Assembly: GCA_963791565.1 (NCBI GenBank)
Contig: CAWBSX010000004.1
Location: 372,601-436,600, forward strand
Direction: 5' to 3'
DNA from: an uncultured Verrucomicrobiae bacterium
Lineage (GTDB): Bacteria; Verrucomicrobiota; Verrucomicrobiia; Chthoniobacterales; UBA10450
DNA length: 64,000 bases
Below the pieces are notes generated by a model that saw only the letters and a list, made by a program, of their open reading frames with translations, searched no databases and was not told the DNA's origin. A program made the position numbers and the translations under genes. Of the stretch, positions 2,721 to 36,072 are shown piece after piece (the stretch's first letter is position 1; every line of letters begins with the position of its first letter).

Positions 2721-2723
2721 CGC

Positions 2724-3215: not shown

Positions 3216-3313
3216 GGGGAGAACGTGATCTTCTCCGACAAGACTGCGTGCGCCAGCCGGCGGTTACAAAAGTCGTTAGGCGAAAAGCATAAAGTCCAGA
3301 AACATCGGAAGTC

Positions 3314-3343: not shown

Positions 3344-3363
3344 TCGGACAGAGTGGAAACATT

Positions 3364-4668: not shown

Positions 4669-4679
4669 TCGACCACTCG

Positions 4680-6903: not shown

Positions 6904-6951
6904 CGGAAATTCGCGTTCGCACTCTCACGTCATTTGGTCGAAAAGAAAATC

Positions 6952-9103: not shown

Positions 9104-9119
9104 TTGCGGTAGTTATGGT

Positions 9120-9749
9120 TTGAATTTGAAAACCAGAAAACCAGAAAGTTCTGATTTCACCAAAGCGGAGCTGCGCAAACTGCGGGCGTTGAAAACACCG
9201 CAAGGCATTCAACGCTTTCTCGATTCGTTGCCGTATCATCTGGCGACGACGGCCTGGTCGCCGCGGCGCGTTTTGCAGGAAGGCACGGCGCATTGTCTGG
9301 AAGGCGCGATTTTCGCCGCGGCTGCGCTGCGCGCGCTCGGATATGCGCCGCTTATTTTCGACTTGGAAGCGGAACAGGATACCGATCACGTCGTGGCGAT
9401 TTATCGGACGCGCGGACACTGGGGCGCGATCGCCAAATCGAACTTCTCAGGTTGCCGCGATCGCACGCCGGTTTATCCGACCTTGCGCGAATTGGCCCTG
9501 AGTTATTTTCACATCTATTTCAATCTGCGCGGCGAACGGACGTTGCGTCGCTATTCGCAACCGGTGAATCTCGCGCGTTTCGATAAACGCGATTGGATGA
9601 CAACGGACCAGGAGGTTTGGTTTATCGCCGATTATCTCTGCGAAATTCCGCATCGTCCGGTGGTCAAGCGGACCTTGTTAAAAAATGCGTACCGCATAGA
9701 CGCGCGCACGATGCAGGCCGAGATGGTCGGTCATCGAAAGAAGCACTAA
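9120..9749 (+). CDS. Transglutaminase-like putative cysteine peptidase
   Basis: There is a Cys motif GTAHCLEGAIFAAAALRALGY and a His motif DHVVAIYRTRGHWGAI. The start is uncertain (TTG at 9120 or 9126), because the upstream part of the track ORF is antisense to the neighbouring gene. Confidence 0.5.
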   Translation: MNLKTRKPESSDFTKAELRKLRALKTPQGIQRFLDSLPYHLATTAWSPRRVLQEGTAHCLEGAIFAAAALRALGYAPLIFDLEAEQDTDHVVAIYRTRGHWGAIAKSNFSGCRDRTPVYPTLRELALSYFHIYFNLRGERTLRRYSQPVNLARFDKRDWMTTDQEVWFIADYLCEIPHRPVVKRTLLKNAYRIDARTMQAEMVGHRKKH

Positions 9750-9758
9750 CCTGCGTTC

Positions 9759-10478
9759 GTGGAGACGAAGACACATATTCTAATCACCGGTTCGACGCGT
9801 GGCATCGGCGCCGTCACGCGCGACGAATTGAAGAAACAGGGCGCTCGTGTCATCGGTCACGGTTCGCGCGCAGCCGGAGCGGAAGAAATCCCCGCGGATC
9901 TCTCGCAGCCCAATGCAGCGGATGCACTGTGGCGCGAAGCGATCGAACGACTCGACGGCCGGATTGACGTCCTGATCAATAATGCCGGCATTTACGAACC
10001 TGTGTCCGTTGGAGAGAGCACGGAAGTTTGGGAAGCGCGCTGGAATCGCACCATGCAGATCAACCTCCAGGCCGCAGCGGATCTTTGCCGACTGGCCGTT
10101 TCGCATTTCCGATCGCGCGCCGGAGGCGGTCGCATCGTCAATGTCGCGAGTCGCGCGGCCCATCGCGGTGATTCGCCGGAGCACTGGCATTACGCGGCGT
10201 CGAAAGCGGGCTTGATCGCTGTGACAAAGTCGATCGCGCGTGGATTCGCGACCGAAGAAATCTACGCCTTTGCCGTCGCGCCCGGTTTCACCATGACTGG
10301 AATGGCGGAAGATTACCTAACGAGTCGTGGAGGTGACGCGATCCTGAAAGAGATACCATTACGTCGCGTGAATTCCGCGGAAGAAGTTGCCAACGCGATC
10401 GTTTATCTCGCTCTGCACGCTCCAGCCGCAATGACCGGCGCGGTGATTGATATCAATGGCGCGAGTTACGTGCGCTGA
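9759..10478 (+). CDS. SDR-family oxidoreductase
   Basis: 239 aa with TGSTRGIG cofactor motif, NNAG, and catalytic YAASKAG (YxxxK). Confidence 0.9.
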   Translation: METKTHILITGSTRGIGAVTRDELKKQGARVIGHGSRAAGAEEIPADLSQPNAADALWREAIERLDGRIDVLINNAGIYEPVSVGESTEVWEARWNRTMQINLQAAADLCRLAVSHFRSRAGGGRIVNVASRAAHRGDSPEHWHYAASKAGLIAVTKSIARGFATEEIYAFAVAPGFTMTGMAEDYLTSRGGDAILKEIPLRRVNSAEEVANAIVYLALHAPAAMTGAVIDINGASYVR

Positions 10479-10698
10479 TTTGCCTAACGAGTAGTTAATT
10501 CGCTGCTAAAACGCGGCTGTCCTACCGCGTTTCAACCGTTGTCCCAAAAGCGGAACGGTCACATCCCAAGCACGACACGTTTCCGATGGACTCGTAAAAT
10601 GATCCACATTCTCAAGTGGCTGATTTAATGGTATTTGTGACTTGTTTTTGGCGGTGGCATAGGCCTTGCAAATAGAAGCGGCCTAACCAAACAAACCA

Positions 10699-10947
10699 AT
10701 GAAAAACAAAAACACTTATTCGCTTCTCGTTCAGTCCCAGGAGAAGGGTCGCTCGATTTTCGAAGCTTCGATTTATGGCCTCGTGATTCTCTGCACCGTT
10801 TTCTCCGCCTGGTCGTTCGCGGCGCATTCGATCATGTTGCCCGGAATGAACCACGTGGACAAAAACGCGGGGACGGAAATGGCCGCGCAAGCAGCGGCGG
10901 AGAACCCTGTCGCCATCGCGAGCAACGCCGACGCCAACGCGCTGTAA
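10699..10947 (+). CDS. Small single-pass membrane protein preceding the permease array
   Basis: 82 aa with one helix, IYGLVILCTVFSAWSFAA. It is preceded by the most AT-rich intergenic stretch of this region. No homology recognised. Confidence 0.35.
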   Translation: MKNKNTYSLLVQSQEKGRSIFEASIYGLVILCTVFSAWSFAAHSIMLPGMNHVDKNAGTEMAAQAAAENPVAIASNADANAL

Positions 10948-10980
10948 TCGTGGCGTTGCTAAACGCCTAACGAGTCCTGC

Positions 10981-13443
10981 GTGAACACGTTCCTGAAGGA
11001 TCTGCAGTATGCCGCGCGCATGCTGCTGAAAAATCCTGGTTTCAGCGCCATCGCGGTCATCGCTTTGGCGCTCGGGATCGGTGCCAACACCGCGATCTTC
11101 AGCGTGGTCAGCGCAGTTCTGCTGCGTCCGCTGCCTTATCCGCAGCCGGAACAAATCGCCGCCGTCTGGGCGGCGGACAATACCAAAGGACACGCGAAGA
11201 CTTCGTTTTCGTTTCCGGATTTTGCGGACGTGCGCGCGCAGAACCAGGTCTTCAGCGCGATGGCGGCGTACGACGATTCCGACATGACCGCGACCGACCG
11301 CGGCGCGGATGCCGAGCACATGCACGGCCTGCTGGTGACGTCGGATCTTTTTCGTGTCTTAAACGTGAATCCGATTCTCGGACGCGGCTTCACTGCCGAT
11401 GACGACAAACCCGGCGTGCGCGTCGTCGTTTTGAGCTACGACCTTTGGCAACGCCGGTTCGGCGGTGATCGCAACGTTCTCGAAAAAACGATCACGTTGA
11501 ACGAAACGCCGCATCAAATCATCGGCGTCATGCCGCCGACGTTCCGTTTTCCAATCGAAAAAACGTCCGCCGTTTTCTGGACTTCCGCCGCAACGCAATT
11601 TGAAGCCGCGCCCGGCAGCACCGAGACCTCAGCTTCGCAGCGCGGCATGCACTTCTTGCACTCCATCGCACGCCTCAAACCGGGTGTGAGCGCGGCACAG
11701 GCGGAAGCGAACACGAAGACCATCATGGCTTCGCTGGCCACGCAATATCCCGATTCGAACAAGCGCTTCGATTCCTCGCGCGTCGTCGCGCTTCTCTCCG
11801 ATCTAACTACCGATGTCCGTCCCGCGCTCGTCGTTCTCCTCGCCGCCGCCGGCTGCGTCTTGCTGATCGCATGCGTGAACGTGGCCAACCTTCTTCTCGC
11901 CCGCGCCACTTCGCGCGAAAAGGAAATGGGAATTCGCGCCGCGCTCGGCGCGAGTCGGGCGAGAATTTTCCGGCAGCTCCTCACCGAAAGCGCCTTGCTC
12001 TCGTTAGGCGGTGGCGCCGCCGGGATGTTGCTGGCCGTTTGGGGAACAGCCGGCCTCGCCGCGTTGCTTCCGCAAAATTTTCCGCGCGCAGAGGAGATCG
12101 GACCCGACCTGCGCGTGCTCGCGTTTACCGCACTCGTTAGTCTTTTTACCGGCCTCCTTTTCGGACTCGCCCCGGCCTGGCGCGTTTCGCGGCCTGATGT
12201 TGTCAGCGCGCTCAATGAAAGCGCGCGCGGCTCGAGCGAAACCGCGCGCGGTCGCCGCCTGCGCGGAATTCTTGTCACCGCCGAAATGGTGCTCGCGTTT
12301 GTCTTGCTCGTCGGCGCCGGGCTCTTGATCCGCAGCTTTTGGCAATTGCAGAAAGTGCCGATCGGCTTTGATCCAAACCACGTCATGACCGCGAGTGTTT
12401 CGCTGCCCGAGGGCGACGGCGGACCGGAAATCACCAAGCGCGACGAACAATTTTACGTGCAGCTGATGGAACGGGCCAACGCCATTCCCGGCGTCCGTTC
12501 GGTCGCGGCGATCAGCCCATTGCCCTTGAGCGGCGCGGATTGGCGAACCGGGTTCGACATCGCCGGCCGTCCCACCGCGAAGTCCGATCGAGCGCTGAGC
12601 GCGGCGCGCGTCGTTACGCCGGGTTATTTCGGCACGATGGGAATTCCGCTGCGCAAAGGCCGCGATTTCGATCCGCGCGATAAGTTCGAATCGGCCGGCG
12701 TTGTCATCGTGAACGAATCACTCGTTAGGCAATATTTTCCTAACGAAGATCCAATCGGGAAAAGAATCACACCGCAAATTTCACTGGATGTGCGCGAACC
12801 GATCGAGCGCGAGATCATCGGCGTGGTCGGCGATGTGAAGGCGCGCAAGCTAACCGCGGAAAATATGGCCGAGTTGTATCTGCCGCACACGCAGGCGCCG
12901 AGCGGCAGCATGACGATTGTCGCGCGCACCCATATGGAACCGCAGGCGATCCTGCCTTCGCTGCGCGGCGCGGTTGAAAGTTTGAACAAAGATCTGCCGC
13001 TCTACGAAACGCGGACCATGCAGCAATATCTTGATCGCGCCGTCGCGCAGCCGCGCTTGAACATGACACTGCTCATCGTTTTCGCGGGTGTGGCCATCGT
13101 CCTCACCGCCGTCGGAATTTACGGCGTGATGGCTTACTCGGTCGCACAACGCACCCAGGAAATCGGCATTCGCATGGCGCTCGGCGCGCAACGTTTCGAT
13201 GTTCTGCGACTCATCGTCGGACAAGGCGCGCGCTTGGTTGCGCTCGCGATGGTCATCGGCGTCGGCGCTGCGTTCGCCATGACTCGATCAATCGCCAGTC
13301 TGCTCTACGGCGTCGGGGCGACAGATTTCCCCACACTTTTCTCGGTCGCGCTTCTTCTCGCACTCATCGCGCTCCTGGCTTGCTGGTTGCCGGCGCGCCG
13401 CGCGAGCGGGATTGATCCGATCACCGCGCTACGCACGGAATAA
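10981..13443 (+). CDS. ADOP-type (MacB-like, duplicated FtsX) orphan ABC permease, paralog 1
   Basis: 820 aa. N-terminus [36 protein letters not shown], two FtsX halves, and C-terminus [19 protein letters not shown]. Confidence 0.9.
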
Positions 13444-13503
13444 TTCGTATGCGAGAAGAAGCGCGGCGCGACACTCTGGGTAGCGCAAGCGTCTCGCGCG
13501 CCG

Positions 13504-13535
13504 GTTTCGGTGTCTCGCCGAAACGAACTTTTTTT
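13504..13535 (+). terminator. Candidate rho-independent terminator after paralog 1
   Basis: Stem GTTTCGG (13504-13510) pairs with CCGAAAC (13518-13524). After 4 nt there is a T7 run (13529-13535). Confidence 0.45.
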
Positions 13536-13575
13536 CGAGCAAAGTCCACATCGCCTAAGGAGAGGAGAAACTTCG

Positions 13576-15987
13576 ATGAATAATTTTCGCTACGCACTTC
13601 GCCAGTTGCGTAAGTCGCCCGGGTTCACTTTTGTCGCTGTACTAACGCTTGCGCTCGGCATCGGCGCGAACACCGCGATCTTCACTGTCGTTCACGCAGT
13701 TTTGCTTTCACCGCTGCCGTTCCCCGACGCCGATCGCATCGTCGCGGTGCAATCGCGCAACCTGCAGGAGAATCTCAAAGGGCTGGGCTTCGCGCCCGCC
13801 GGATTCCGCGATGTCGAGAAACAGGTCACCTCTTTCGAGGCCATCGCGGCTTATCGCTATAACTACGACAATCTCACGCGCGTGGAGAAACCAACTTCGG
13901 TCAGCGGAAGTCTTGTCACGCAAGATTACTTTCGCGTGCTCGGCGAGAAGGCGCTGATCGGGCGCACTTTCACGCCCGAAGACGCCGCGGCCAACGCAAA
14001 ACCGACCGTTCTTCTGAGCTATGATTTCTGGCAGAAACAATTCGGCGGCCGGCGCGATCTCGTCGGCCAAACGGTCACGCTCGATGACGTTCCGCACGAG
14101 GTCATCGGCGTCATGCCGCGCACTTTCAAAGATCCATTTGGCATCGCCGCCGAGTGGCGACTCTTTCCGAACGAAGGCGGCGAGAACTTCGTCGCCAATG
14201 CGCGTTTCTGGGCCGTCATCGGACACATGAAAGCTGACGTACCAATGTCCACTGTTCAGGCCGAGCTCGGTACAATCAGCGCGCGACTCGCGCAGAGCGA
14301 TGCGAAATTCTACAAAGGCTGGGACATCAATCTGAGTCCGTTGCGCGATCAGGTCGTCGGAAATTATCGCGAAGGTTTACTGCTGGTGGTGGGCGCCGCG
14401 CTGGTCGTGTTGCTTATCACCTGCGCCAATGTCGCGGGTCTGCAATTTGTTCGCGCCTCGACACGACAACGCGAAGTCGCGATTCGACTCGCTCTTGGCG
14501 CGAGTCGCGGGGCGGTCGCGCGCGGACATCTGATCGAATCGCTGTTGCTCGTCGCGGTCGGTGGACTCGGGGGTGTGTTGCTCGCGAGTTGGGGATTGGA
14601 TGTGCTTCTCGCGAGCCTGGCGCGCGATTGGATTCCGCGCAGCGATGAAATCGCGCTCAACACGACGGTGCTTTTGGTCACCGGCGTGACCGCATTAGTA
14701 ACCGGAATTCTCTTCGGACTTTTCCCCGCATGGCACGCCACGCGCATCGACGCGATCGATTCGTTGCGCGACGGCGGCAAAGGGGGCTCGGCCGGTCTGC
14801 AATCGGTGCGACTGCGCGGCGCGCTCGTCATCGCACAAATCGCGCTCACGCTCGTGCTGCTGGTTTGCGCGGGACTGGTCTGGAAGAGTTTCGCCGCGAT
14901 CACGCGCGTGAATCCCGGGATTCAAATCGAGAACACGCTCAGCATGGTCATCACGCTCGCGCCCACGCAATACGACACGGGTCCCAAACGCATCGACTAT
15001 TTTCGTCAGCTTCTCGAACGCACAAGTGTGATTCCGGGAGTGGAATCAGTCGCGTTCACTCAGACGATGCCGTTCACGTGGGGAATCCCGGCGACGTTTT
15101 CTGTTTACGGCTCTTCGAACGACGAAAACAAATTGCCACCGGCCATCTACGATTCCGTTAGTCCATCGTATTTTTCGACGATGCACATTCCGCTGCTGGC
15201 TGGCCGGGTATTTGCGGAAACCGACAACGCGCAATCGCCCGGTGTGATCATGATCAGCCAATCAACGGCGAAGAAATTTTTCCCGAATGAAGATCCGATT
15301 GGAAAGCGTCTGATTCTTCCGCCGGGCCGTCAGCAACCGAATCCCGTGCCGCTCGAAATCATCGGCGTGGTCGGCGATGTGCCGCGCGATGGACTCAACG
15401 CCGACACGCCATACCAGGTCTACGCGAGTTTGAATCAGCGTGCGTGGGCCTTCGCCACATTGCTTGTGCGCTCGCCGCTTCCAGTCGAAACACTCACGCA
15501 GACAGTTCAGCGCGCGATCTGGGCCTTCAATCCGGAGCAGACAATTTCCAACGTCGCGCCGGTGCGCACGCTGGTGAAACAAAGCCTGACGCAGCCGCAA
15601 CTTTATCTCACGCTCTTCAGTCTCTTCGCGCTCCTCGCATTGCTGCTCGCCAGCATCGGTCTTTACGGGCTCATCGCTTACAGCGTCGCGCAGCGCACGC
15701 GCGAATTCGGCATTCGCTTCGCACTCGGCGCGCAGATTGGCGATGTGCTGCGACTCGTTCTCGGACAAGGCGCGCGGCTGACCGCGCTTGGCCTTGTCCT
15801 TGGTTTGCTGGGCGCGGCGGGAGTCGCGCGTCTCATGCAAACACTTCTCTTTCATACCGCCGCTTACGACCCGCTGGTCTTCGGCGGTGTTGTGTTAGTA
15901 CTCGCGGTCATCGGCCTTCTCGCCGCGTTGTTGCCAGCGTTGCGCGCGACCAAGGCCGACCCAGTCGCCGCTCTCCGCACCGAATAG
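13576..15987 (+). CDS. ADOP-type orphan ABC permease, paralog 2
   Basis: Start at [38 protein letters not shown], preceded by AAGGAGAGGAG. About 803 aa with the same architecture as paralog 1. Confidence 0.9.
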
Positions 15988-15997
15988 GAACGCCAAC

Positions 15998-18430
15998 ATG
16001 AACACACTGCTTCAAGATTTTCGTTACGCACTGCGCAAGCTCGTGCAGCAGCCCGCCTACACCATCATCGCCGTGCTCACGCTCGCGCTCGGCATCGGCG
16101 CGAACACTGCGATCTTCAGTGTGGTCAACGCGGTGCTTTTACGCCCGCTGCCTTATCCGGAACCTGATCGCATCGTTTATCTCAGCGAAGTAAACGGCGG
16201 GACGAACAGCGCGATCGCATTTCCGGATTACATCGATTGGCGCAACGATGCGAAATCGTTCGAGCATCTCGCACTCTCGCGCACGGAATCGCGAAACCTC
16301 AGCGGCATTGCCGGTCGTGAACCGGAGCGCGTCTCGGTCTCGTTCGTCACTGCGAACTTCTTTCGCGTGATCGGCCTCAATCCACAAATCGGCCGCACCT
16401 TTACGGACGACGAAGACAAGCCGGGCGCGCCGGCGCTGGTCGTGCTGAGCGATCGTTTGTGGGACCGCGTCTTCAATCGCGACCCAAACATCATCGGTCG
16501 CGCGGTGACGTTTCACGGTCAGCCGTTCACGGTCACGGGCGTGATGCCGCGGGAAATGGATTCGCCGCATGGCGTGGACGCGTGGTTCTCGGTGATGCGA
16601 CGGAGCGCAAACGCCGCCTGGCAGAATCGCGCCAATCATCCAATGCTCTTCGCCTGGGGCCGGCTGAAGAAAGGTATCACGGTCGAGCAGGCGCGAAGCG
16701 AGATAAAAACCATCGCGGCGCGATTGGAAAAAACTTACCCGGAAACGAACGCGGGCACGAGCGGCGAAGTAAAACCGCTGCTCGATAACTTGTTAGGCAA
16801 CTACCGCACAAGTCTCACGCTGTTGCTTTGCGCGGTCGCGCTCGTCCTCCTCATCGCTTGCGCGAATCTCGCCAATCTTTTCGCCGCGCGCGGTGCTTCG
16901 CGTTCGCGTGAGTTTGCCATTCGCGCCGCTATTGGTGCATCGCGCTTAGGAGTCGTTAGGCAATTGCTCATTGAAAGTTTTTGTATCGCGCTGATCGGCG
17001 GCGCGCTCGGTTTGCTCTTTGCCATTTGGGGACGCGACGCTCTTGTCGCCTTCGCGCCGGGTAATGCGCCGCGCTTCGAAGGCATCGGCTTCGATGCGCG
17101 CGTGCTCGGTTTCACTTTTCTGCTGGCCAGCCTGACGACAATTCTTTTCGGCCTCTGGCCCGCATGGCAGGTCGCGCACGCCGACATTCAAACCGCACTT
17201 CAAGCCGGTTCATTCGGTAGTTCCGAAACAAAAACAGCGCGGCGTAGTCGCGATTGGCTGGTCATCGCCGAAGTCGCGCTCACACTTTTGTTGCTCAGCG
17301 CCGCCGGTCTTGTTTTGAAGAGCTTCGCCAAGATGCAATCGGTCGCGCTCGGTTTCGAGCCGCGCGGACTTCTCACCGCGCGCATCGATTTGCCCTACAC
17401 GAAATACACCGATCACGAAAAGGTCGCGAACTTCGACAACGCATTGCTCGACGGCGTGCGGCGCTTGCCCGGCGTGCAAAACGCAGCCGTTGGCGCGAAT
17501 CCTCCGATGCTGAGCGGATGGCAGCTGAATTTTTTACCCGAAGGCGCGCCGCCGACTGATCCGAGCCAGCAGCCATCCGCCGATTCGGAAGTGATCGCGG
17601 GTGATTACTTCGCTGCGCTGCAAACAACATTGATCCGCGGCCGCACCTTCAACGCCGGCGACACCAAAGATTCGCCGCCGGTCGTGATCATCGATCAAAC
17701 GTTGGCCGAGACAGCTTTCCCGAAACAGGATCCGTTAGGCAAACGTCTCGCCATCGGTGGTGCCGACGGGAACAGCGAGGACATCATTCTCTATGAAATC
17801 GTCGGCGTGGTCGCGCACATGAAACTGCGCGGATACGACGACGTGCCAGCGATACCGGCATTCTTTTTTGCCGAAACGCAAACGGCGCGAACGAATCAGG
17901 TATTACTCGTTAGGGCGAGCGGCAATGTGAAGTCGCTCGAGAGATCGATTCGCGAAGTCATCAATCGCGTCGATCCAACACAGCCGGTTTTCGACTTCCG
18001 CGCCATGGAAGAACGCGTGGCCGAAACCTGGTCGACGCAACGTCTGCTTTCATTTCTTCTCGCGATTTTTGCGGGTCTCGCGTTGCTCCTCGCCGCAGTC
18101 GGCTTGTATGGCGTGCTTTCTTACACTGCATTGCGACGCTTACGCGAAATGGCGGTGCGCATCGCATTCGGCGCGCGACCTGCGGACATCCGCGGTTTGG
18201 TTTTCGGTCACGGCTTCCGTTTGTTCGGCGTAGGAATCGCGCTCGGCGCAATCGGCGTTGCTGGCTCTGCGCCCGTCATCCGCAGTTTTCTTTTCGGGGT
18301 CGCAACCGCTGATCTGCAGATTTTTGCCGCTGTCGGTATTCTGCTCTCGTTAGTCACCGTGCTCGCCGCGTGGTTACCCGCGCAACGCGCCTGCCGCGTG
18401 AATCCGATCATTGCGCTGCGCGCAGAATAA
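15998..18430 (+). CDS. ADOP-type orphan ABC permease, paralog 3
   Basis: 810 aa. [42 protein letters not shown] ... [19 protein letters not shown]. Confidence 0.9.
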
Positions 18431-18448
18431 TTCGCCTAACGAGTCCTA

Positions 18449-20863
18449 ATGGAAACAACCCTTCGCGACATTCGCTATGGCTTGCGCACCCTGCGCAAAA
18501 ATCTCGGCTTCACCGCGGTGGCGGTGGTCGCCCTCATGCTCGGAATCGCGAGCACGACCGTCATCTTCAGCGTGATCAATGGCGTCCTGCTCCGCCCGCT
18601 GCCTTATCCGGACGCGGATCGGATCGTCACCATCTCGCAGACCATCGCCGCTTCGAATATTGCGCGCGGAGCGACAGCGCCGGCGAATTACGTCGATCTG
18701 GCGGCGCAGTCCGATGCCTTCGTCGCCATGGCTGCGTCGCGTGGCTGGCAGGGAAATCTCACCGAGGGCGACATGCCCGAACGTCTGCGCGTGACCATGA
18801 CGACGACGAACTTGTTTCAAGTTTTTGCGAGCGCGCCGATCCTCGGTCGCGGTTTGCAAGCGGCGGATGAACAGCCCGGTCGTTCGAATGTCGCCGTGCT
18901 TAGTCAGGGTTTGTGGGAACGGAAATTCGGGAGCGATCGCAACATCATCGGTCGCGAAATTCGTTTCGATGGCGAACCGCGCACCATCGTTGGCGTGATG
19001 CCGGCCAGTTTTTCACCGGATGATTACGGCGAACTTTGGGTGCCATCGCCTTTCGGTGTGCCAACGCATGCCTTGCGGCCGACGCAAGACCCGCGCCGAA
19101 TGCGCGACAGCAATTATCTCGATGTTTATGCGCGTCTGAAACCGGGCGTGACTTTGCAGCAGGCGCAAACGCAGTTGAGCGCGGTCATGGCGCGTTTGGA
19201 AAAAGATTACCCCGACGACAACATGGGCGAAGGCGTCGCCGTTACGCCGTTGCAGGAAGACAAAGCGGGCAGCATGCGGCCAGCGCTGCTCATGCTGGGC
19301 GCGGCGGTTGGATTTCTTCTTCTGATCGGTTGCGCGAACGTGGCGAACCTGCAGCTGGCGCGCGCGGCAGCGCGGTCACGCGAAGTTTCCATTCGCGCCG
19401 CGCTGGGCGCGGATCGCTCACGACTCGTTAGGCAACTTCTGACCGAAAGTATTTTGCTCGCGCTGATTGGCGGCGCGCTGGGAATTCTGGTCGCGGCCTG
19501 GGCCGTGCCGGTTTTGATGGCGATGGCGCCGCCCGCCTTGACAAGCTTCAAGGAAATTACACTCGATCGCGGCGTGCTCTTGTTCAGCCTGATCATTTCA
19601 TTACTAACTGGCGTGCTCTTCGGGCTGGCACCGGCTTTTCAAGCCTCATCGGCGAATCCGAACGACTCGTTAGGCGAAGGCGAACGCGGCAGCACGGCCA
19701 GTCACAGCCGCAGCCGGTCCGTTCTGATCGCGACGGAAGTTGGACTAACACTGGTCCTGCTCATCGGCGCGGGATTGCTCATCAGAAGTTTCGGGAAGGT
19801 CACCAAAGTCGATCCCGGTTTCACGCCGGAGAACTTACTTGTCTTTGACGTCGGCCTTCCGCCCGCGACGGACGACGCGCACAATCTCGCCTTTTATCAG
19901 CAGGTGGTGGAACGCGTGCAGGCTGTTCCCGGTGTGATGCGCGTCGGCGCGGTCAGCCGGTTGCCGTTCTCCGGCGGTAACAGCGGCCGCTCCTTCAATC
20001 TTCCCGGCAGCGACAAAAACTACGACGCCGACATTCGCGTGAGCACGCCGGATTATTTTCGCACGATGAACATTCCGCTTTTGCGCGGACGCGTCTTTAC
20101 TGAACAGGACACGAAAGATTCTGTGCGCGTTTGTGTGATCAACGACGCCACCGCGCGGATGGCGTTTCCCGGCGAAGATCCGGTCGGCAAATTCGTCGTC
20201 AATTTCGGACCGGACAGCGAGAAGCTGCAGATCATCGGCGTGGTCGGAAACATCCGGCATCTCGCGCTCGACACCGCGCCGCATCCGGAACTCTATCAAC
20301 CACTCGGCCAGGCAAAATGGCCGCGCATGTTCATCGCAATGCGAAGCGCCGTGGGAAATTCGCTCGCGTTATTACCGGCCGCGCAGAACGCGGTCTGGAG
20401 CGTCGATCGCAACGTCGCGCTCGGTAATGTACGCACGATGGAAGACACGATCGCGCGGACGTTGTTGAAGCGAAAATTCACCATGACGCTGCTGACAATT
20501 TTCGCCGGCATCGCCGTCGCGCTCGCCTCGATCGGTTTGTATGGTGTGATGTCGTATTCCGTTTCGCAACGCACGCGTGAGATCGGAATTCGCATGGCGC
20601 TCGGTGCGCAACGTGCGGATGTGCTGCGACTGGTCGTTAGGCAAGGGATGTTACTAACCGCGATTGGCGTCGGGCTTGGGCTGGCCGGTTCGCTTGGCCT
20701 AACGAGACTTATCTCGAGTTTGCTCTTTGGTATCAGCGCGACGGATGTCAGTACCTTCGGCGCGGTTTCGATTTTGCTGCTCGCGATCGCGTTACTGGCC
20801 TGCTGGCTGCCGGCGCGGCGCGCGAGTGGCGTCGATCCGATGGTGGCGCTACGAGCGGAGTAA
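18449..20863 (+). CDS. ADOP-type orphan ABC permease, paralog 4
   Basis: 804 aa. METTLRDIRYGLRTLRKNLGFTAVAVVALMLGIASTTVIFSV ... [19 protein letters not shown]. Confidence 0.9.
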   Translation: METTLRDIRYGLRTLRKNLGFTAVAVVALMLGIASTTVIFSVINGVLLRPLPYPDADRIVTISQTIAASNIARGATAPANYVDLAAQSDAFVAMAASRGWQGNLTEGDMPERLRVTMTTTNLFQVFASAPILGRGLQAADEQPGRSNVAVLSQGLWERKFGSDRNIIGREIRFDGEPRTIVGVMPASFSPDDYGELWVPSPFGVPTHALRPTQDPRRMRDSNYLDVYARLKPGVTLQQAQTQLSAVMARLEKDYPDDNMGEGVAVTPLQEDKAGSMRPALLMLGAAVGFLLLIGCANVANLQLARAAARSREVSIRAALGADRSRLVRQLLTESILLALIGGALGILVAAWAVPVLMAMAPPALTSFKEITLDRGVLLFSLIISLLTGVLFGLAPAFQASSANPNDSLGEGERGSTASHSRSRSVLIATEVGLTLVLLIGAGLLIRSFGKVTKVDPGFTPENLLVFDVGLPPATDDAHNLAFYQQVVERVQAVPGVMRVGAVSRLPFSGGNSGRSFNLPGSDKNYDADIRVSTPDYFRTMNIPLLRGRVFTEQDTKDSVRVCVINDATARMAFPGEDPVGKFVVNFGPDSEKLQIIGVVGNIRHLALDTAPHPELYQPLGQAKWPRMFIAMRSAVGNSLALLPAAQNAVWSVDRNVALGNVRTMEDTIARTLLKRKFTMTLLTIFAGIAVALASIGLYGVMSYSVSQRTREIGIRMALGAQRADVLRLVVRQGMLLTAIGVGLGLAGSLGLTRLISSLLFGISATDVSTFGAVSILLLAIALLACWLPARRASGVDPMVALRAE

Positions 20864-24163: not shown

Positions 24164-25024
24164 ATGGCCACAAACTCCTACGCACATCCAGAAGCCTTGG
24201 TGGACGCGGACTGGCTTGAAAAACATCGCAACGACGAAGGGATCCGCATCGTCGAGTCCAACGAAGACATCCTCCTTTACGACAACGGTCACATTCCCGG
24301 CGCCGTGCATATTGATTGGCGGACCGATCTTCAAGATCCGATCATTCGCGATTACATCACACCCGATAAGTTCGCCGAGCTATGCAGTCGCAATGGCATT
24401 ACGCCCGACACGACGTGCATCTTTTACGGCGACAAAGCGAACTGGTGGGCCTGCTACGCGCTGTGGGCTTTCCGCTTGTTCGGTCACGAGAAGGTAAAAA
24501 TCCTCAACGGCGGCCGCGACAAATGGAAAGCGGAAGGCCGGGAGATGACGCGGGAAGTTCCGAAGTATGCGCGCGCAAATTATCCGGTGCCGAAGAAACG
24601 TTACGACAAAGAGATTCGCGCTTTCGCCGATGAAGCACTCGCGCAGAGCAAGGCGGGTAAGCCGATGATCGATGTGCGTTCGCCTGGCGAATTCAAGGGC
24701 GAGATCACGCACATGCCCGAGTATCCGCAGGAGGGCGTACTGCGCGGCGGTCACATTCCCGGCGCGAAAAGCGTGCCCTGGAAAACGGCGACGAACGACG
24801 ACAGCACATTCAAATCCGCCGCGGAGCTGGAGAAAATCTACAAAGAGAACTGCGGCGTATCGTCCGACAAAGAAACGATCGTCTATTGCCGAATCGGGGA
24901 ACGTTCGAGTCACACCTGGTTCGTCCTCACGTATCTGCTTGGGATTGATAACGTGCGGAATTACGACGGCTCGTGGACGGAGTGGGGCAATAAAGTCGGC
25001 GCGCCAATCGAACGGAGCGCGTAA
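24164..25024 (+). CDS. sseA: Thiosulfate/3-mercaptopyruvate sulfurtransferase (two-domain rhodanese)
   Basis: 286 aa with the active-site loop [11 protein letters not shown]. The symbol is assigned by family resemblance only. Confidence 0.8.
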
Positions 25025-25032
25025 GATTCTGC

Positions 25033-25488
25033 GTGTACCCGCCGAAACTCGATAAGATCATCCATCTCTTCGAAACGCTGCCGGAAGTGGAGCGGCGTGA
25101 GACGCTCGTTTCCTATGCCGACGGCGCGAAGAAGCAGGAACCGCGGCCTAACGAGAAGTTCGATCTCGAAGATATCCGCAAAGATGAGGAATGCGCCGAT
25201 ACCGTCGGCGTTTATTTACAGGTCGATGACGAAGGCAAAGCGCACTTCCGGATGTCGCTCGGACCGGAAGTGCAAACGCTGACACGCGCGATGACCTCGA
25301 TTCTTTGCAAAGGCCTCGACGGCGCGACGCCGCAGGAAGTTCTCGATCTGCCGAGCGATTTCGTTACGCGCATTGTCGGCGCCGAACTCGTGCGCGTGCG
25401 CAGCCAAACGACTTACTACATTCTCACCCGCATGAAGGGCATCTGTAAGGTTTATCTTGATCGGCAGCGCAAGATGGCCGCGGCTTAA
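25033..25488 (+). CDS. SufE-like sulfur-acceptor protein
   Basis: 151 aa with a GTG start. The SufE-family call rests on general sequence resemblance that I did not verify by search, and on genomic context next to the sulfurtransferases. Confidence 0.55.
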   Translation: MYPPKLDKIIHLFETLPEVERRETLVSYADGAKKQEPRPNEKFDLEDIRKDEECADTVGVYLQVDDEGKAHFRMSLGPEVQTLTRAMTSILCKGLDGATPQEVLDLPSDFVTRIVGAELVRVRSQTTYYILTRMKGICKVYLDRQRKMAAA

Positions 25489-25539: not shown

Positions 25540-28500
25540 ATGCCGCGGAACAACGAGCTGCGAAAAATTCTCCTCATCGGCTCCGGCCCGATCGTGATCG
25601 GGCAGGGCTGCGAGTTCGATTATTCCGGCGTGCAGGCCTGCAAGGCTTTGCAGGAAGAGGGCTACGAGGTCGTGCTGGTGAACTCGAACCCGGCTACCAT
25701 CATGACCGATCCGGAATTCGCGGACCGCACTTACATCGAGCCGATCACGCCGGAAGTGATCGAAGCGATTCTCGAGCGCGAAAAGCCGGACGCGATTCTG
25801 CCAACAATGGGCGGCCAAACCGCGCTCAACGCCGCGATGGAATTGAATCGCAACGGCGCGCTCGCTAGGCACGGCGTGAAATTGATCGGCGCGAACGCGC
25901 AGGCCATCGCGAAAGGCGAAGATCGCCAGCTTTTCAAGGAAGCGATGTTGCGCATCGGTCTCGACGTTCCGCGCTCCGGCATCGCGCACAATCGCTCGCC
26001 GATGCGAACCGCGTCGCGGACACGATCGGAACTTTTCCGCTCATCATTCGACCCGCTTTCACGCTCGGCGGCACCGGCGGCGGCATCGCCTACAATCGCG
26101 AAGAGCTCGAGGAAATCGCCGAGCGCGGGCTCGCGCTTTCGCCGGTCACGCGAAGTCTTGATCGAGGAGTCGCTCGTCGGCTGGAAGGAATTCGAGATGG
26201 AAGTGATGCGCGACCACGCCGACAACTGCGTAGTCGTTTGCTCGATCGAAAACTTCGATCCGATGGGCGTGCACACCGGCGACTCGATCACTGTCGCGCC
26301 GGCGCAAACGCTGACCGATCGCGAATATCAATTGATGCGCGACGCGTCGTTCGCCGTGATTCGCGAGATCGGCGTGGAGACCGGCGGATCGAACATTCAG
26401 TTCGCCGTCAATCCGGACAACGGCCGCATGGTGGTGATCGAAATGAATCCGCGCGTCTCGCGTTCGAGCGCGCTCGCTTCGAAAGCCACCGGATTTCCCA
26501 TCGCGAAAATCGCCGCCAAACTCGCGGTCGGCTACACGCTCGACGAAATCAAGAACGACATCACGCGCGAAACGCCGGCGAGCTTCGAGCCAACGATCGA
26601 CTACTGCGTGGTCAAAGTTCCGCGCTTCACTTTCGAAAAATTTCCGCACGCCGACCCGACTCTAACGACGCAGATGAAGAGCGTCGGCGAAGCGATGGCG
26701 ATCGGCCGCACTTTCAAGGAGGCGCTGCAAAAAGCGCTGCGTTCACTCGAGATCAAGCGCTTCGGTCTGTGCGGCGACGGCGAAGGAAAAGCGCGTCGAT
26801 CCCGAAACATTGCGTCTCAAGCTCGCCATTCCGAATGCCGAGCGCATTTTCCATCTCGCGCAGGCGTTCCAGGACGGCATGCGATCGACGACGTCTTCGA
26901 GCTGACGAAAATCGACCGCTGGTTCCTGCACAATGTCGAGCAGATCGTGTAGGGCAGAACTGCACAGCTGGCAATCGATCGACTTGCGCCGAGCGAAGAA
27001 GCTCGGATTTTCCGATCGGCAACTGGCGATCGCGCACGGAACTTGAAAGAACAGACGATTCGCGCAACGGCGGAAAGCAGCAGAAAGTCATCCCCACTTA
27101 CCGACTGGTCGATACCTGCGCGGCGGAGTTCGAAGCGTTCACGCCGTATTACTATTCCACCTACGGGATCGAGAACGAGATGCGCCGCGACGCGAACGGC
27201 GCAAGATCATGATTCTCGGCGGCGGGCCGAATCGCATCGGGCAGGGAATTGAATTCGATTACTGCTGCGTGCACGCGGCTTTCGCGCTGCGCGAACTCGG
27301 ATTCGAAACCATCATGGTGAACTCGAATCCGGAAACGGTTTCGACCGATTACGACACGAGCGACAAACTCTATTTCGAGCCGCTCACGCTCGAAGACGTG
27401 CTCAATATTTACGATCAGGAAAAGCCGGAAGGTGTGATCGTGCAGTTCGGCGGACAAACGCCGCTGAATCTCGCGGCCGGTTTGCGCGCGGCCGGCGTTC
27501 CGATTCTCGGGACGCAACCGGAGAGCATCGAGATGGCGGAAGACCGCAAGCTTTTCGCCGCGATGCTGGACAAGCTCGGTTTGCGGCAAACGCCGAGCGG
27601 ATCGGCGGTGAGCGCCGACGGAAGCGATAGCGATCGCGGAACGAATCGGTTATCCAGTGCTCGTTAGGCCGTCGTTCGTCCTGGGCGGTCGCGCGATGGA
27701 ACTGGTTTACAACGACGACAGATCTCGAGCGTTACATGCAGAGCGCGATCGAGGTCAGCTCGGATCGGCCGGTCTTGGTCGATCGGTTTCTCGAAGACGC
27801 GATCGAGGTCGACGTCGATTGCATCGCTGATGGTGAGACTAGCCGTGATCGGCGCGATCATGGAGCACGTCGCAGCTCGCCGGCATTCATAGCGGGGACA
27901 GCGCCTGCGCCATCCCGACTTTTTCGCTCTCGACAAAACGTGCTCGACGGAAATCTCGCGCGCGACGAAGGCGATGGCGCGCGAGCTCGAACGTGCGCGG
28001 GCTGATGAATGTGCAATTCGCGGTGAAAGGCGACGACGTCTACGTGCTCGAAGTGAATCCGCGCGCCTCGCGCACCGCGCCGTTTGTCAGCAAAGCGATC
28101 GGCGTTCCGTTCGCAAAACTCGCCGCCAAAGTGATGACGGGAAAGACGTTGAGCGAACTCGGCTTCACCAAAGAAATTATTCCGAAACATTTTTCGGTGA
28201 AGGAACCGGTCTTTCCTTTCCTGCGTTATCAAGGAAGCGACACTGCGCCTGGGCCCGGAAATGAAATCTACCGGCGAAGTGATGGGCATCGATGCCGATC
28301 TCGGTCTTGCTTACGCCAAGGCGCAGATGGCCGCGCCGCCGCCCTGCCGAAGATCAGGAAATGTTTTCATCAGCGTGAAAGATTCGGACAAGGAAAGCGT
28401 CGTGCCATTGGCGCGTGATTACATCGCGCTCGGTTTCGGGATTATCGCGACCAGCGGAACGGCGGCGATGTTGGCCGCGGTCGGAATTCCAGTGCACCAG

Positions 28501-28750
28501 CGTTTTCAAATTACGCGAAGGCCGGCCGAACGTGCTCGATCGGATCAAGAACGGCGACATGCAGTTGATCATCAATACGCCGAGCGGAAAAATTCCACGC
28601 GAAGATGAAATCAAAATGCGCAGCGGCGCGCGCACATTGAAAATTCCGATCATCACGACGATGCGCGCGGCGCAGGCCAGCGTACACGGCATTGCTTCAC
28701 TGCAGAAAAGCAGTCTGCAGGTTAAGACGTTGCAGGAATATCACCTGTAA
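25540..28750 (+). pseudogene. carB: Carbamoyl-phosphate synthase large subunit, reading frame broken by about 17-19 single-base indels
   Basis: CarB sequence is recognisable end to end, but only by hopping frames. Examples are [30 protein letters not shown]..., [117 protein letters not shown] and REGRPNVLDRIKNGDMQLIINTPSG. Track ORFs 25540, 26238, 27209, 27736, 27993, 28261 and 28415 are fragments of this gene. Confidence 0.85.
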
Positions 28751-28954
28751 ACCCTACCATGCGCCGCCGCTGCAACCGCGCATGAGGACGAGCAAAATAA
28801 TCGTGCCGATAATTGAAACGACGATCGAGCCAAGACAGCCCATGCGGGAGGAAAAGAAAGCGAACATCGCCGCGGAAACGATGGTGGCGAGCGCATCAGC
28901 TGTGTGAAACGCAAAACGCGTGACACCGCGCGCGCTTCGTGTGACAGGTCTCGG

Positions 28955-29596
28955 ATGAAACTGACCTTGCTCGCTTGTCTCGCGACCGCGCTGGCCGCGA
29001 CGAACTTGTTTGGCCAAACCGAAACACCATCTGCTTCTCCGAACGCTTCTATGACTCCATCACCATCATCCAGTCCTGCCGCGAAAGAAGTCGCCGTCAT
29101 CAAAACAAGCGAAGGCGAAATGGTCGCCGAATTCTGGCCCGATGTCGCGCCGAACACGGTGGAGAATTTCAAGAAATTAGCGCGGCAGGGTTTCTACGAT
29201 GGCACTGCTTTTCATCGCATCATCAAAGGTTTCATGGCGCAGGGCGGCGATCCGCTGACCAAAGATCCCGCGAAAGAAAGCATGTGGGGCACCGGCGGTC
29301 CGGGTTACAAAGTGAAAGCCGAATTCAACAAAAAGCCGCATGAGCGCGGGGTTCTTTCCATGGCGCGCTCGAGCGATCCGGATTCGGCTGGTAGCCAGTT
29401 TTTTCTCTGCTTCGGCAAAGTCAGCCAGCTCGACGGGCAATACACGACCTTCGGCAAAATCATTAAAGGCGACGCCGTGCTCGACAAACTGGCCAACGTC
29501 GAAGTAACAACGAGCAACAGCGGCGAAAAAAGTAAGCCGGTCAATCGCGTCGGTCTTGAGAGCATCAAGATCGTGCCGGCGGACTCGGTGAAGTAA
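28955..29596 (+). CDS. Secreted cyclophilin-type peptidyl-prolyl cis-trans isomerase
   Basis: Start at MKLTLLACLATALAATNLFG (signal-like). It has FHRIIKGFMAQGGDP and SAGSQFFLCF. Confidence 0.9.
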   Translation: MKLTLLACLATALAATNLFGQTETPSASPNASMTPSPSSSPAAKEVAVIKTSEGEMVAEFWPDVAPNTVENFKKLARQGFYDGTAFHRIIKGFMAQGGDPLTKDPAKESMWGTGGPGYKVKAEFNKKPHERGVLSMARSSDPDSAGSQFFLCFGKVSQLDGQYTTFGKIIKGDAVLDKLANVEVTTSNSGEKSKPVNRVGLESIKIVPADSVK

Positions 29597-29598
29597 CA

Positions 29599-30483
29599 AT
29601 GTCGGAGGCGAGCACCAACGTCGCATTGGTGCAGATGCAATGCGGGACGGATCCCGCGGCGAATCTGGAAAAGGCGATCGGGTTCATCCGCGATGCGGCG
29701 AAGAGCGGCGCGCAGATAATCTGTCTGCCGGAGCTTTTTCGATCGCAGTATTTTTGCCAATCGGAAGATCACAAATACTTCGCGCTCGCGGAAGAAATTC
29801 CCGGGCCGACCACGGACTCGTTAGGCAAACTCGCGGGCGAGCTTAAGGTTGTCATCGTCGCGTCGCTTTTCGAAAAGCGCGCTGCCGGCGTTTATCACAA
29901 CACCGCCGCCATCATCGATGCCGATGGGAAATTTCTCGGAAAATATCGCAAGATGCACATCCCGGATGATCCATCGTTTTACGAAAAATTTTATTTCGCG
30001 CCGGGCGACTTGGGCTTCAAAAACTGGCCCACACAACGTGGGAATATTGGTGTCTGTGTTTGCTGGGACCAATGGTATCCGGAGGCAGCCCGCCTGACGG
30101 CATTGCGCGGTGCGCAGTTACTTTTTTATCCGACTGCGATCGGATGGCATCCTTCTGAGAAGGAAAAGTATGGTCGCGCGCAATATTCCGCTTGGGAAAC
30201 AATGCAACGCAGTCACGCCATTTCGAATGGTTGTTTCGTCGCAGCCGTGAATCGCGTCGGTTTCGAAAATCCCGCGGGCGGCGACGGCATCGAATTCTGG
30301 GGACAAAGTTTCATGGTCGCGCCGAGCGGCGAAATTCTCGCGAAAGGCAGCGTTGATCGCGAAGAAATCATCCTGGCCGACGTGGATTGGAAACGCGTCG
30401 ATGAACACCGCACGCATTGGCCATTCCTGCGCGATCGTCGCATCGACGCCTACGCAGGCCTCGAGCGGCGGATGATCGACTGA
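29599..30483 (+). CDS. Carbon-nitrogen hydrolase (N-carbamoylputrescine amidase-like)
   Basis: 294 aa with catalytic-Cys context GVCVCWDQWYPE, plus PELF and YRKMHIPD. Confidence 0.85.
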   Translation: MSEASTNVALVQMQCGTDPAANLEKAIGFIRDAAKSGAQIICLPELFRSQYFCQSEDHKYFALAEEIPGPTTDSLGKLAGELKVVIVASLFEKRAAGVYHNTAAIIDADGKFLGKYRKMHIPDDPSFYEKFYFAPGDLGFKNWPTQRGNIGVCVCWDQWYPEAARLTALRGAQLLFYPTAIGWHPSEKEKYGRAQYSAWETMQRSHAISNGCFVAAVNRVGFENPAGGDGIEFWGQSFMVAPSGEILAKGSVDREEIILADVDWKRVDEHRTHWPFLRDRRIDAYAGLERRMID

Positions 30484-34537: not shown

Positions 34538-35011
34538 CTACTCGTTAGTCTCTTTCGATTTCTTGCTCTTCGGCGCAGGCTTCGAATCGGCCGCGCTCTT
34601 CTTGGATTTCGCCTTCTTGGTTGTTTCTGCCGTTTCCGGCTCATCGACAACGACTGCGGCATCGACCCATTCAATGAACGCAACCGAAGCAGAGTCGCTC
34701 TTGCGTTGACCGAGCCGGACGATGCGGGTGTAGCCGCCTTTGCGATCAGCCGAGCGCGGAGCGATGTCGTCGAACAGTTTCTTCACCGCATCCGCCTGAC
34801 GCAACGTGGCGAGCGCAGTGCGTCGCGCGTGCAGCGAGCCTTTCTTTCCCAGCGTCACCATTTTTTCCGCGAGCGGGCGAACCGCTTTCGCTTTGGCGAG
34901 CGTCGTCTTGATGCGGTGATGTTCGATCAAGCTGCAAACCTGATTGGCCAGCAGCGCTTTTCGATGCGCGGCGGTCAGGCCGAGCTTCAAGGTTTTCTTC
35001 TGGTGTCTCAT
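34538..35011 (-). CDS. rplQ: 50S ribosomal protein L17
   Basis: 157 aa. MRHQKKTLKLGLTAAHRKALLANQVCSLIEHHRIKTTLAKAKAVRPLAEKMVTLGK, with a Lys-rich tail. Confidence 0.95.
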   Translation of the reverse strand: MRHQKKTLKLGLTAAHRKALLANQVCSLIEHHRIKTTLAKAKAVRPLAEKMVTLGKKGSLHARRTALATLRQADAVKKLFDDIAPRSADRKGGYTRIVRLGQRKSDSASVAFIEWVDAAVVVDEPETAETTKKAKSKKSAADSKPAPKSKKSKETNE

Positions 35012-35031: not shown

Positions 35032-36072
35032 CTATTCGTGATCAGCCGAGCCATTCATGCTCGCGCCGTCCACACCGACCGGGACTTCCACCAAACCTGG
35101 ATCGAATTTCATCCCAAGACCAAGGCCGAGCTGTTGCAGCTTGTCCTTGATTTCGTTGAGCGATTTTTTGCCGAAGTTGCGATACTTCAGCATCTCAGCT
35201 TCGGATTTTCTGCGCGAGCTGGCCAACCGTGGTGATATTGGCGTTGTTCAAGCAATTGGCGGCGCGGACACTGAGTTCGATTTCGTTCACGCTCATATTG
35301 AGAAGCTTCTTCAGCTTCATGTTTTCCTCGGAAACACCGGCAGGCGTTTCGTCGAACTCGATCACGTCTTCGTTGAAATTCACGAAAACATCGAGGTGAT
35401 GGCGCAGGATCGCCGAGGCCTGGAGCAACGCATCATCTGGCGTGAGACGACCGTCCGTCCAGACTTCGAGGACGAGCTTGTCGTAATCGGTCCGCTGACC
35501 GACGCGGGTGTTTTCCACCGCATATTTCACGCGCGTAACTGGCGAGAAAATGGAATCAATTGGAATAAGACCAATCGGTTGGTCGGCACGCTTGTTCTCG
35601 TCGCCCGTGGCAAAACCGCGGCCGACGCGCACTTCCAGTTCGGCATGTCGAACTTGTGCTTCTTGTCGAGAGTGCAGATGAGCTGCTTCGGATTCAAAAC
35701 CTCGAACCCTTGCGCGAGCTGAATGTCGTGCGCGGTGACTTCGCCTTCTTTGTTGACCGCGAGCGAGAGTTTGCGCGGCTCGTGTTCCGCGGCCTTGAAT
35801 TTGATCCGCTTCAGGTTGAGCACGATGTCGGTCACGTCTTCGACCACGCCGGGCAGAGTAGCGAATTCATGTTGCGCCCCGGTGATTTTCACCGCGGTGA
35901 TGGCGGCGCCTTCGAGCGACGAAAGCAAAACTCGGCGGAGCGAATTTCCGACCGTGTGACCGTAACCGGCTTCAAACGGCTCGGCGACGAACTTGGCGTA
36001 GGTTTCTGTGGAGCCGTCCTCAACTTTGGTGAGGGTCTTCGGCATTTCAAAACGACCGTATCTTACTGGCAT
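35032..36072 (-). pseudogene. rpoA: DNA-directed RNA polymerase alpha subunit with two single-base frameshifts in this sequence
   Basis: The gene is covered by three track ORFs (35527-36072, 35195-35632, 35032-35226). The N-terminal domain reads GHTVGNSLRRVLLSSLEGAAIT. The middle reads ELEVRVGRGFATGDENK. The C-terminal domain reads [20 protein letters not shown] then [23 protein letters not shown]. The frame breaks lie at about 35641-35643 and in the T4 run at 35206-35209. Confidence 0.9.

Follow-up and report, generated by a model that had tools for sequence, protein, structure and literature searches.

Clustered one- and two-base indels in a soil Chthoniobacterales carB gene are likely errors of a long-read consensus

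The carB gene, which encodes the large subunit of carbamoyl-phosphate synthase, lies at positions 25540 to 28750 (+) of the stretch of 64,000 nucleotides analyzed here (the window), which comes from an uncultured Verrucomicrobiae bacterium. According to the ORF listing, it is divided into about ten ORF pieces that are distributed over all three frames. Is this a gene in decay, a gene whose message is recoded, or a product of assembly? The evidence favors an assembly or consensus error over a decaying or recoded gene, and the finding is for that reason an ordinary one. Judging from sequence comparisons, we put at about 0.9 the probability that this soil Chthoniobacterales has an ordinary carB of about 1063 codons and that the approximately 20 indels are consensus errors of a long-read metagenome.

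To place the events in carB we used frameshift-aware protein-to-DNA alignment, with L003, a related Chthoniobacterales MAG whose CarB is intact, as the reference, and nucleotide alignments to intact relatives. The alignments revealed about 18 frame changes and one compensated pair, or about 20 one- or two-base indels. An earlier sequence-only reading had claimed 17–19 indels, and each of its break coordinates fell within about 10 nt of an aligned site (a change that it called −1 being +2 in our terms). The indels sum to +19, which is +1 modulo 3. This agrees with the deposited length of 3211 nt, as compared with about 3192 nt (1063 codons and a stop) after removal of the surplus bases, and with the earlier bookkeeping, in which the gene starts in frame 1 and ends in frame 2. 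As deposited, carB does not form a single uninterrupted frame of about 1060–1080 codons. The repaired frame contained no stop codons, and its product was 88% identical to that of L003 over 1046 codons. Residues 1–1063 of the repaired protein matched positions 1–1058 of the 1058-position NCBIfam model PRK05294 with a score of 1668 bits (cut-off 599), and the score against TIGR01369 was 1493 bits (cut-off 1027). Pfam recognized two copies of CPSase_L_D1, two of CPSase_L_D2, CPSase_L_D3, and MGS. The protein thus has the domain order of CarB, in which two halves, each composed of a pre-ATP-grasp and an ATP-grasp domain, are followed by an oligomerization domain and a C-terminal MGS-like domain. 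That the sequence between the breaks is conserved CarB without in-frame stops, as the earlier reading had held, is borne out by this end-to-end match.

The neighbors of carB are whole, as had been noted for SufE and cyclophilin:

24164–25024: rhodanese ORF, whole
25033–25488: SufE ORF, whole
28904–29596: cyclophilin ORF, whole
29599–30483: nitrilase-like ORF, whole

When compared with relatives by blastn, carB exhibited 32–38 gap openings, whereas the adjoining rhodanese and SufE genes exhibited none. The clustering of indels in carB is far beyond chance.

The individual events are given below. Several of their columns are also disrupted in what we call Flye-style contigs, which are named in the manner "contig_N" under ENA accessions of the series ERZ250395xx and whose assembly type we read from that style of name.

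25990–25991 (+): +2, AA following GCGCAC; Flye-style L082 and L083 independently have +1 at this column
26149–26150 (+): +1; the window has A-C-G-C and relatives ACC or AGC, so that both alleles are present
26782 (+): +1, G following GGC; relatives have GGC or GGG, and the extra G is also in L082
26881–26882 (+): −1, T of ATG-TCG absent; the sole clear single-base deletion in carB
26947–26974 (+): net +1 at about 26950, in the length-variable linker joining the two CarB halves
27044–27046 (+): net +2 (equivalent to −1); the old frame gains TGA at 27045–27047
27068 (+): +1, C; column polymorphic in relatives
27082–27084 (+): +1, A; the adjacent column is A or G in relatives
27185–27191 (+): +2, AC; L083 and L081 have +1 at this column
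27619–27620 (+): +1; the window has GA-C-G-GAA and relatives GAC, GAG, or GAT
27719 (+): +1; the window has GA-C-A-GAT and relatives GAC, GAA, or GAG
27842 (+): +1; the window has A-G-C-C and relatives AGC or ACC
27873 (+): +1, C; the sole single-base insertion off a polymorphic column
27934 (+): +1, C; an extra base at this column is also in L083, L081p, and L081m
27945–27949 (+): +1 (GA-C-G-GAA); the third codon position here is polymorphic
27988 (+): +1; the window has CT-C-G-AA, and relatives have C, G, or A as the next base
28251–28254 (+): +1 within GCGCCTGGGCCC; an extra A at this column is in both L081 copies
28343–28352 (+): compensated pair, −1 at about 28343 and +1 at about 28352, from alignment to relatives
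28495 (+): +1; the window has GTG-C-A-CC, and the next codon of relatives begins with A, C, or G

Two of these events call for comment. The net gain of one base at about 26950 produces an in-frame TAG (26950–26952); the exact inserted base could not be placed because the linker varies in length among relatives. In the compensated pair, CCG-CTG lacks one G at about 28343 and a surplus G follows at about 28352 (AA-G-A-TC, relatives having AAG or AAA), with the result that the sequence CRRS stands where relatives have LPKS, and the L-to-C and P-to-R replacements are unique to the window.

The inserted bases themselves appear to carry the signature of an artefact, namely an extra base that represents the alternative allele at a place where relatives are polymorphic. 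For 12 of the 13 insertions of a single base, the base gained was the alternative allele at the adjacent column in the five closest intact relatives (expected, 0.26; binomial P = 1e-6); the figure from a second alignment was 11 of 13 (P = 2e-5). The same presence of both alleles was seen in independent Flye-style contigs (5/6 in L083, 8/10 in L081p, 5/7 in L081m, and 3/6 in L082). As to direction, carB displays 16 insertion groups versus one deletion. Homopolymers, the classical nanopore context, are extended by just two to four of the 13 single-base insertions. The sequence-only reading had correctly described the inserted bases as mostly non-homopolymer and had weighed this against an artefact; that step fails, in that the signature is that of a different artefact, other genes are affected as well, and breakage follows the type of assembly. 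An assembly or consensus artefact had, however, been among the outcomes that it listed, and it is this outcome that our results support.

Indeed, among relatives the breakage of carB tracks assembly type and not phylogeny. The gene was a single ORF in each of the nine close relatives whose contigs bear short-read-style names (L001–L006, L009, L012, and L013), whereas it was broken in all five Flye-style copies, which are found on four contigs (L081, with two copies, L082, L083, and L164). The broken and intact sequences interleave in a tree made from a block free of indels. The broken sequences L081m, L081p, and L164 are 94%–97% identical to each other, yet they differ by 34–44 mostly single-base indels in 6.4 kb. 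Break sites mostly differed among the broken contigs and were in this sense non-reproducible. Columns broken in more than one contig included those at amino acids 150/151 (the window, L082, and L083), 413 (the window and L082), and 896 (the window and both L081 copies); contigs that shared a column differed in the bases inserted and in the sites downstream at which the frame was restored. L007 and L011, which had been candidates for further broken copies, were dropped when tblastn showed only the N-terminal half of the gene at the locus. No intact carB of the same species was found in short-read data, the best match anywhere having 96% amino-acid identity.

Apart from its indels, carB has the appearance of a gene under purifying selection. 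Its dN/dS relative to L003 was 0.107 overall and 0.076 away from the events (range 0.08–0.11). At columns that are invariant in 11 relatives, the window has five replacements of its own, as compared with zero to five in intact relatives. Three of the five are explained by frameshift sites, one adjoining a frameshift mark and two lying within the compensated pair. These values uphold the earlier statement that no other decay is visible. The sequence-only reading had also proposed that substitutions be counted against indels in an alignment with relatives, and the count is about 20 indels versus at most two unexplained replacements at constrained sites. In a pseudogene, dN/dS should move toward 1 and invariant residues should be replaced, and neither is seen in carB; nor do deletions predominate or substitutions outnumber indels, as would also be expected. 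An old pseudogene is rejected on the strength of the dN/dS values and the small number of replacements at invariant residues.

The carB gene is not the only frameshifted gene in the window. The two others are:

35035–36072 (−): rpoA, an essential gene, in three frames, with two shifts, at about 35643 (+2, CC) and at about 35206 (+1, in a run of A)
54730–55813 (+): tryptophan 2,3-dioxygenase gene, with eight indels (six deletions and two insertions) relative to 12 intact relatives

The Pfam domains RNA_pol_A_bac and RNA_pol_A_CTD are each cut at an rpoA frame junction. In the dioxygenase gene deletions predominate, an error mode unlike that of carB; four of five deletions were at polymorphic columns (P = 0.18, a sample of five having no power). 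Among the approximately 30 ORF pieces elsewhere in the window that were screened with Pfam, these were the only split genes.

How might such errors have come about? The consensus was most likely built from mixed long reads, as far as can be judged from the sequence. The carB gene would be sufficiently conserved for one contig to collect reads of several strains or species that occur together. Where the templates differ, the consensus caller would retain both alleles in tandem, giving rise to an inserted base, and now and then it would retain neither; every base retained or lost in this way would shift the reading frame. We infer both the origin of the window in a long-read assembly of this type and the exact algorithmic route. 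It is known that Nanopore-only assemblies polished once with Medaka keep frameshift-causing indels (PMC12313526, PMC9262707) and that Flye collapses close strains and species to one consensus (PMC8302730). Mixed templates in a consensus so collapsed would account for extra bases that represent alternative alleles; we found no paper that explicitly describes a failure in which both alleles are retained. No clear donor mosaic was detected in carB: a sliding 200-nt nearest-neighbor scan against the available relatives showed no sharp donor switches. Conservation alone falls short of explaining why carB is affected, because the rhodanese and SufE genes are 80%–83% identical in nucleotide sequence to those of the closest relative, which is about the level of carB, yet are clean.

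The known artefacts of error-prone or Nanopore-only assemblies, which are recognized by truncated proteins ("IDEEL"), have in common with carB the 1–2-nt indels and the conserved translation (PMC9262707, PMC12313526), as well as the tie to assembly type and the lack of reproducibility between near-identical genomes. Classical errors of this kind, however, are changes in homopolymer length, are mostly deletions, and occur genome-wide, whereas those of the window are mostly non-homopolymer insertions, affect few genes, and fall at sites that are polymorphic among relatives. The same considerations bear on an unlikely variant of the artefact, in which generic long-read noise is responsible: very few reads, or an unpolished region, would have let random indels survive, and mixed templates would have played no part. 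The density of about six indels per kb in carB lies within the indel rates usual for raw nanopore reads and would fit such noise. So would the local clustering of the errors in three genes (carB, rpoA, and the dioxygenase gene), with other ORFs that were checked elsewhere in the window looking whole, the predominance of deletions in the dioxygenase cluster, some of them within short runs, and the additional A in an A run at one rpoA junction. But random errors should not match the alternative allele at polymorphic columns, as was the case for all but one of the 13 single-base insertions, and should not recur at amino acids 150/151, 413, and 896 in independent contigs. Substitutions at invariant residues, which noise should also have introduced, are absent. 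Finally, raw nanopore errors favor deletions and homopolymers, which is not the pattern of carB, with its great excess of insertion groups, few of them in homopolymers.

If the indels were instead real, carB could be a very recent pseudogene, and the organism would depend on a second carB or on an outside supply of arginine and pyrimidines. We consider this highly improbable. In its favor, the deposited ORF is truly disrupted, and dN relative to L003 is about double that of an intact pair. Genuine pseudogenes, such as those of Mycobacterium leprae and of recent symbionts, likewise include conserved housekeeping genes with multiple frameshifts, but in them selection is relaxed, each indel is accompanied by many substitutions, and deletions are favored, none of which was seen in carB. 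Some 20 indels accompanied by essentially no surplus of replacements at invariant sites is the reverse of the natural mutation spectrum, and whereas bacterial pseudogenes typically show deletion bias, the bias here is toward insertions, with inserted bases that mirror the alleles of other lineages. Moreover, frameshifts also disrupt rpoA, an essential gene of the same window, near-identical contigs disagree on the positions of the breaks, and at least four independent inactivations would be required in lineages with intact sisters.

Recoding, in which genuine frameshifts would be overcome during expression by programmed ribosomal frameshifting, transcriptional slippage, or RNA editing, has in our judgment next to no likelihood. 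In favor of such a mechanism, the correct frame is stop-free and strongly conserved across every break, and contigs that have diverged share some of the break columns. Programmed frameshifting in prfB and dnaX and transcriptional slippage in endosymbionts also yield a functional protein across a frame change, but there each gene has a single site, marked by a conserved slippery motif or by a long poly(A) run. The carB gene has about 20 heterogeneous sites of mixed sign (+1, +2, and −1) with no common slippery motif or context, all of them absent in the close, intact relatives with short-read-style contig names, and contigs that share a column differ in their inserted bases and restoring sites. 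We know of no bacterial system that corrects this many frameshift sites. A broader version of the idea, to which we assign only a very slight chance, is that the extra bases are real in several soil Chthoniobacterales, which would then have an unknown correction mechanism or would have become auxotrophs by recent parallel loss of carB; its sole basis is that diverged contigs are in part broken at the same columns. A naturally split carB, which is also encoded by more than one ORF, was considered and set aside, the pieces in the window being contiguous, overlapping in different frames, and devoid of starts of their own, and hence not separate genes.

A consensus error remains our explanation, and the carB frameshifts are without biological importance, the organism almost certainly having a normal carB. 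Their importance is for those who use public data. Auxotrophy, pseudogene load, and marker-gene completeness inferred from MAGs of this kind would be misleading, and the retention of an alternative allele as an insertion could serve as a simple, read-free test by which such regions might be flagged. When a 210-amino-acid CarB segment was searched against a library of 5.8 billion protein clusters, the best 120 matches were all fragments, of 207–368 amino acids. Contig ends do not account for these fragments, because many of the source contigs span 17–413 kb. Among the source contigs that we inspected, all four from ENA were Flye-style with a frameshifted carB, and such errors therefore feed truncated versions of a core gene into public protein sets. 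The fifth source inspected was an NCBI draft genome, in which many genes are fragmented.

The broken gene is unmistakably carB, which encodes the large subunit of carbamoyl-phosphate synthase. In the ORF map and the sequence it lies in about ten pieces, and its neighbors are whole:

24164-25024, rhodanese gene, whole ORF
25033-25488, SufE gene, whole ORF
25540-28750, plus strand, carB, about ten pieces over three frames
28904-29596, cyclophilin gene, whole ORF
29599-30483, nitrilase-like gene, whole ORF

We placed the events in carB with a frameshift-aware dynamic programme that aligned the intact CarB of a relative (L003) with the window DNA, and again by nucleotide alignment to intact relatives. 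Relatives were retrieved with a clean 210-amino-acid piece of the gene as query, and the nearest genomes were MAGs of the Chthoniobacterales (Verrucomicrobiota). The two alignments agree on about 18 frame-changing events and one compensated pair, and the frame changes listed in the sequence-only reading coincide with both to about 10 nt. The net surplus of 19 nt, or +1 modulo 3, is consistent with a gene of 3211 nt and with that reading's frame bookkeeping, and its description of the SufE and cyclophilin flanks as intact is borne out by the ORF map. After repair, the frame contains no stop codon, and its product shares 88% identity with L003 across 1046 codons, matches the NCBIfam equivalog PRK05294 from the first through the last model position, and has the full Pfam architecture. 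The placement of the events, the stop-free repaired frame, and the CarB model matches thus confirm that carB is disrupted in the window.

The indels comprise 13 single and three double insertions versus one deletion, and of the 13 single ones only two to four lengthen a homopolymer. Where relatives have ACC or AGC, for example, the window has ACGC; where they have AGC or ACC, it has AGCC; and where they have GAC, GAA, or GAG followed by GAT, it has GACAGAT. We scored an inserted base as an alternative allele when it was found at the adjacent column in the five closest intact relatives and differed from the window's own base. By this measure 12 of the 13 single-base insertions hold the alternative allele (random expectation 26%, P = 1e-6), as do 11 of 13 in the second alignment (P = 2e-5). 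This pattern, in which both alleles are retained, provides a test for this class of error that requires no reads.

For repaired carB versus L003, dN/dS is 0.107 overall and 0.076 for codons more than 10 codons from any event. Five replacements at columns invariant in eleven relatives are unique to the window (intact relatives have zero to five at such columns), of which one adjoins a frameshift mark and two lie within the compensated indel pair. Constrained sites thus hold no more than two replacements without an explanation, against twenty indels in the gene, a balance that is the reverse of a natural mutation spectrum and unlike that of a decaying gene. The earlier remark that carB shows no other visible decay therefore holds.

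The best 120 protein matches in a large library were all fragments (207-368 amino acids), many of them on contigs of 17-413 kb; truncated core genes are present in public protein sets, which is a practical warning. Five such contigs were inspected. On four (L081, L082, L083, and L164, all from ENA ERZ250395xx with Flye-style names of the form contig_N) carB is in pieces, whereas it is a single ORF in nine relatives with short-read-style contig names (L001-L006, L009, L012, and L013). In a tree based on an indel-free 630-nt block, broken and intact copies interleave (L082 with L002, L083 with L005, and L081/L164 with L004), and therefore breakage tracks assembly type, not descent. The fifth contig, L165 (GCA_001313125.1, BBFG01000007.1), is from an NCBI draft genome of a cultured strain in which many genes around carB are fragmented (MlaE, carB pieces); it appears to be another error-rich assembly that supplies fragments to protein databases.

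The lesions are not reproducible across near-identical copies. The two L081 copies and one L164 copy are 94-97% identical, yet they differ from one another at 34-44 indels, mostly of a single base, across 6.4 kb. L164 encodes the latter half of carB in one 513-amino-acid ORF, whereas that half needs seven frame changes in the minus-strand copy of L081. The both-allele signature recurs in these contigs (L083, 5/6; L081 plus strand, 8/10; L081 minus strand, 5/7; L082, 3/6). Break columns common to several contigs (amino acids 150/151, 413, and 896) are to be expected if breaks form where the group is polymorphic. On L081 (17 kb, ERZ25039579 contig_82000), rhodanese-SufE-carB occurs twice in inverted orientation, at 1296-5575 (minus strand) and 8016-12765 (plus strand); the copies are about 94% identical, each with its own set of frameshifts, and this double locus is probably a fold-back or a chimeric assembly of two strains.

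A coding-potential map and Pfam scans of window ORFs revealed two further broken genes:

36072-35035, minus strand, rpoA, in three frames; each of its two Pfam models, RNA_pol_A_bac and RNA_pol_A_CTD, is interrupted exactly where the frame changes
54730-55813, plus strand, tryptophan 2,3-dioxygenase gene, with eight indels (six deletions, two insertions) when compared with the intact gene in twelve relatives from JGI soil metagenomes

At the rpoA junctions there are two surplus bases, CC, near 35643 and one surplus A near 35206, within a run of A (AAAA); the adjoining rplQ (34541-35002) is whole. Damage to the dioxygenase gene, unlike that to carB, consists mostly of deletions. Beyond these three genes no split ORF was found among the window ORFs screened with Pfam. 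Some 30 indels are thus concentrated in about 5 kb of the 64-kb window, and one damaged gene, rpoA, is essential. Gap openings relative to relatives (blastn) number 32-38 within carB and zero in the adjoining rhodanese and SufE genes.

The carB frameshifts are not biological and not a real feature. Recent inactivation of the gene is contradicted by the bias toward insertions, the absence of substitutional decay, the breakage of rpoA in the same window, and the presence of other lineages' alleles in the insertions; it would also require that at least four lineages had lost the gene in parallel. Recoding across the frameshifts is likewise contradicted: the roughly 20 sites are heterogeneous and share no motif, and no relative with short-read-style contig names carries any of them. 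L007 and L011, which lie close by in the tree, may have a naturally split carB, with only the CarB N-terminal half at the locus (5362-6852 in each; 70% amino-acid identity), but these look quite different from the window gene.

Most likely the window, whose origin we infer, comes from a long-read metagenome assembly in which mixed templates went into the carB consensus. At a site where templates differ, the consensus would keep both alleles and so gain one base; a consensus model in which read deletions are cheap would favor carrying both alleles over charging half of the reads with a substitution. Flye is known to merge related strains and species in a single consensus (PMC8302730). Soil assemblies from Nanopore reads alone, built with Flye --meta and polished once with Medaka, still contain indels (PMC12313526), and such residual indels produce frameshifts in gene calls (PMC9262707). 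Three observations fit a template mixture poorly: a donor mosaic sought along carB was not visible, the flanking genes are clean though their similarity to the nearest relative is about that of carB, and the dioxygenase gene is rich in deletions. Because of these points, part of the damage possibly stems from plain thin coverage. Whether by template mixture or by thin coverage, the carB lesions are artefacts.

Two intact relatives, L002 and L004, carry carB as single uninterrupted ORFs of 1364 and 1339 amino acids. Each has, in the linker joining the two CarB halves, an in-frame segment of about 260-290 amino acids with an IS200-like Y1 transposase domain (PF01797; L002 6834-7627, L004 approximately 6435-7273), an odd find within a core enzyme. 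The two inserts are 51% identical to each other, and that of L004 is bordered by a repeated Gly/Pro-rich peptide. Elsewhere in the window, four consecutive paralogous ORFs of 804-825 amino acids, all intact, lie in tandem at 10981-20863 (plus strand), and another FtsX-type permease ORF is found with an ABC ATPase gene at 4-2714 (minus strand).
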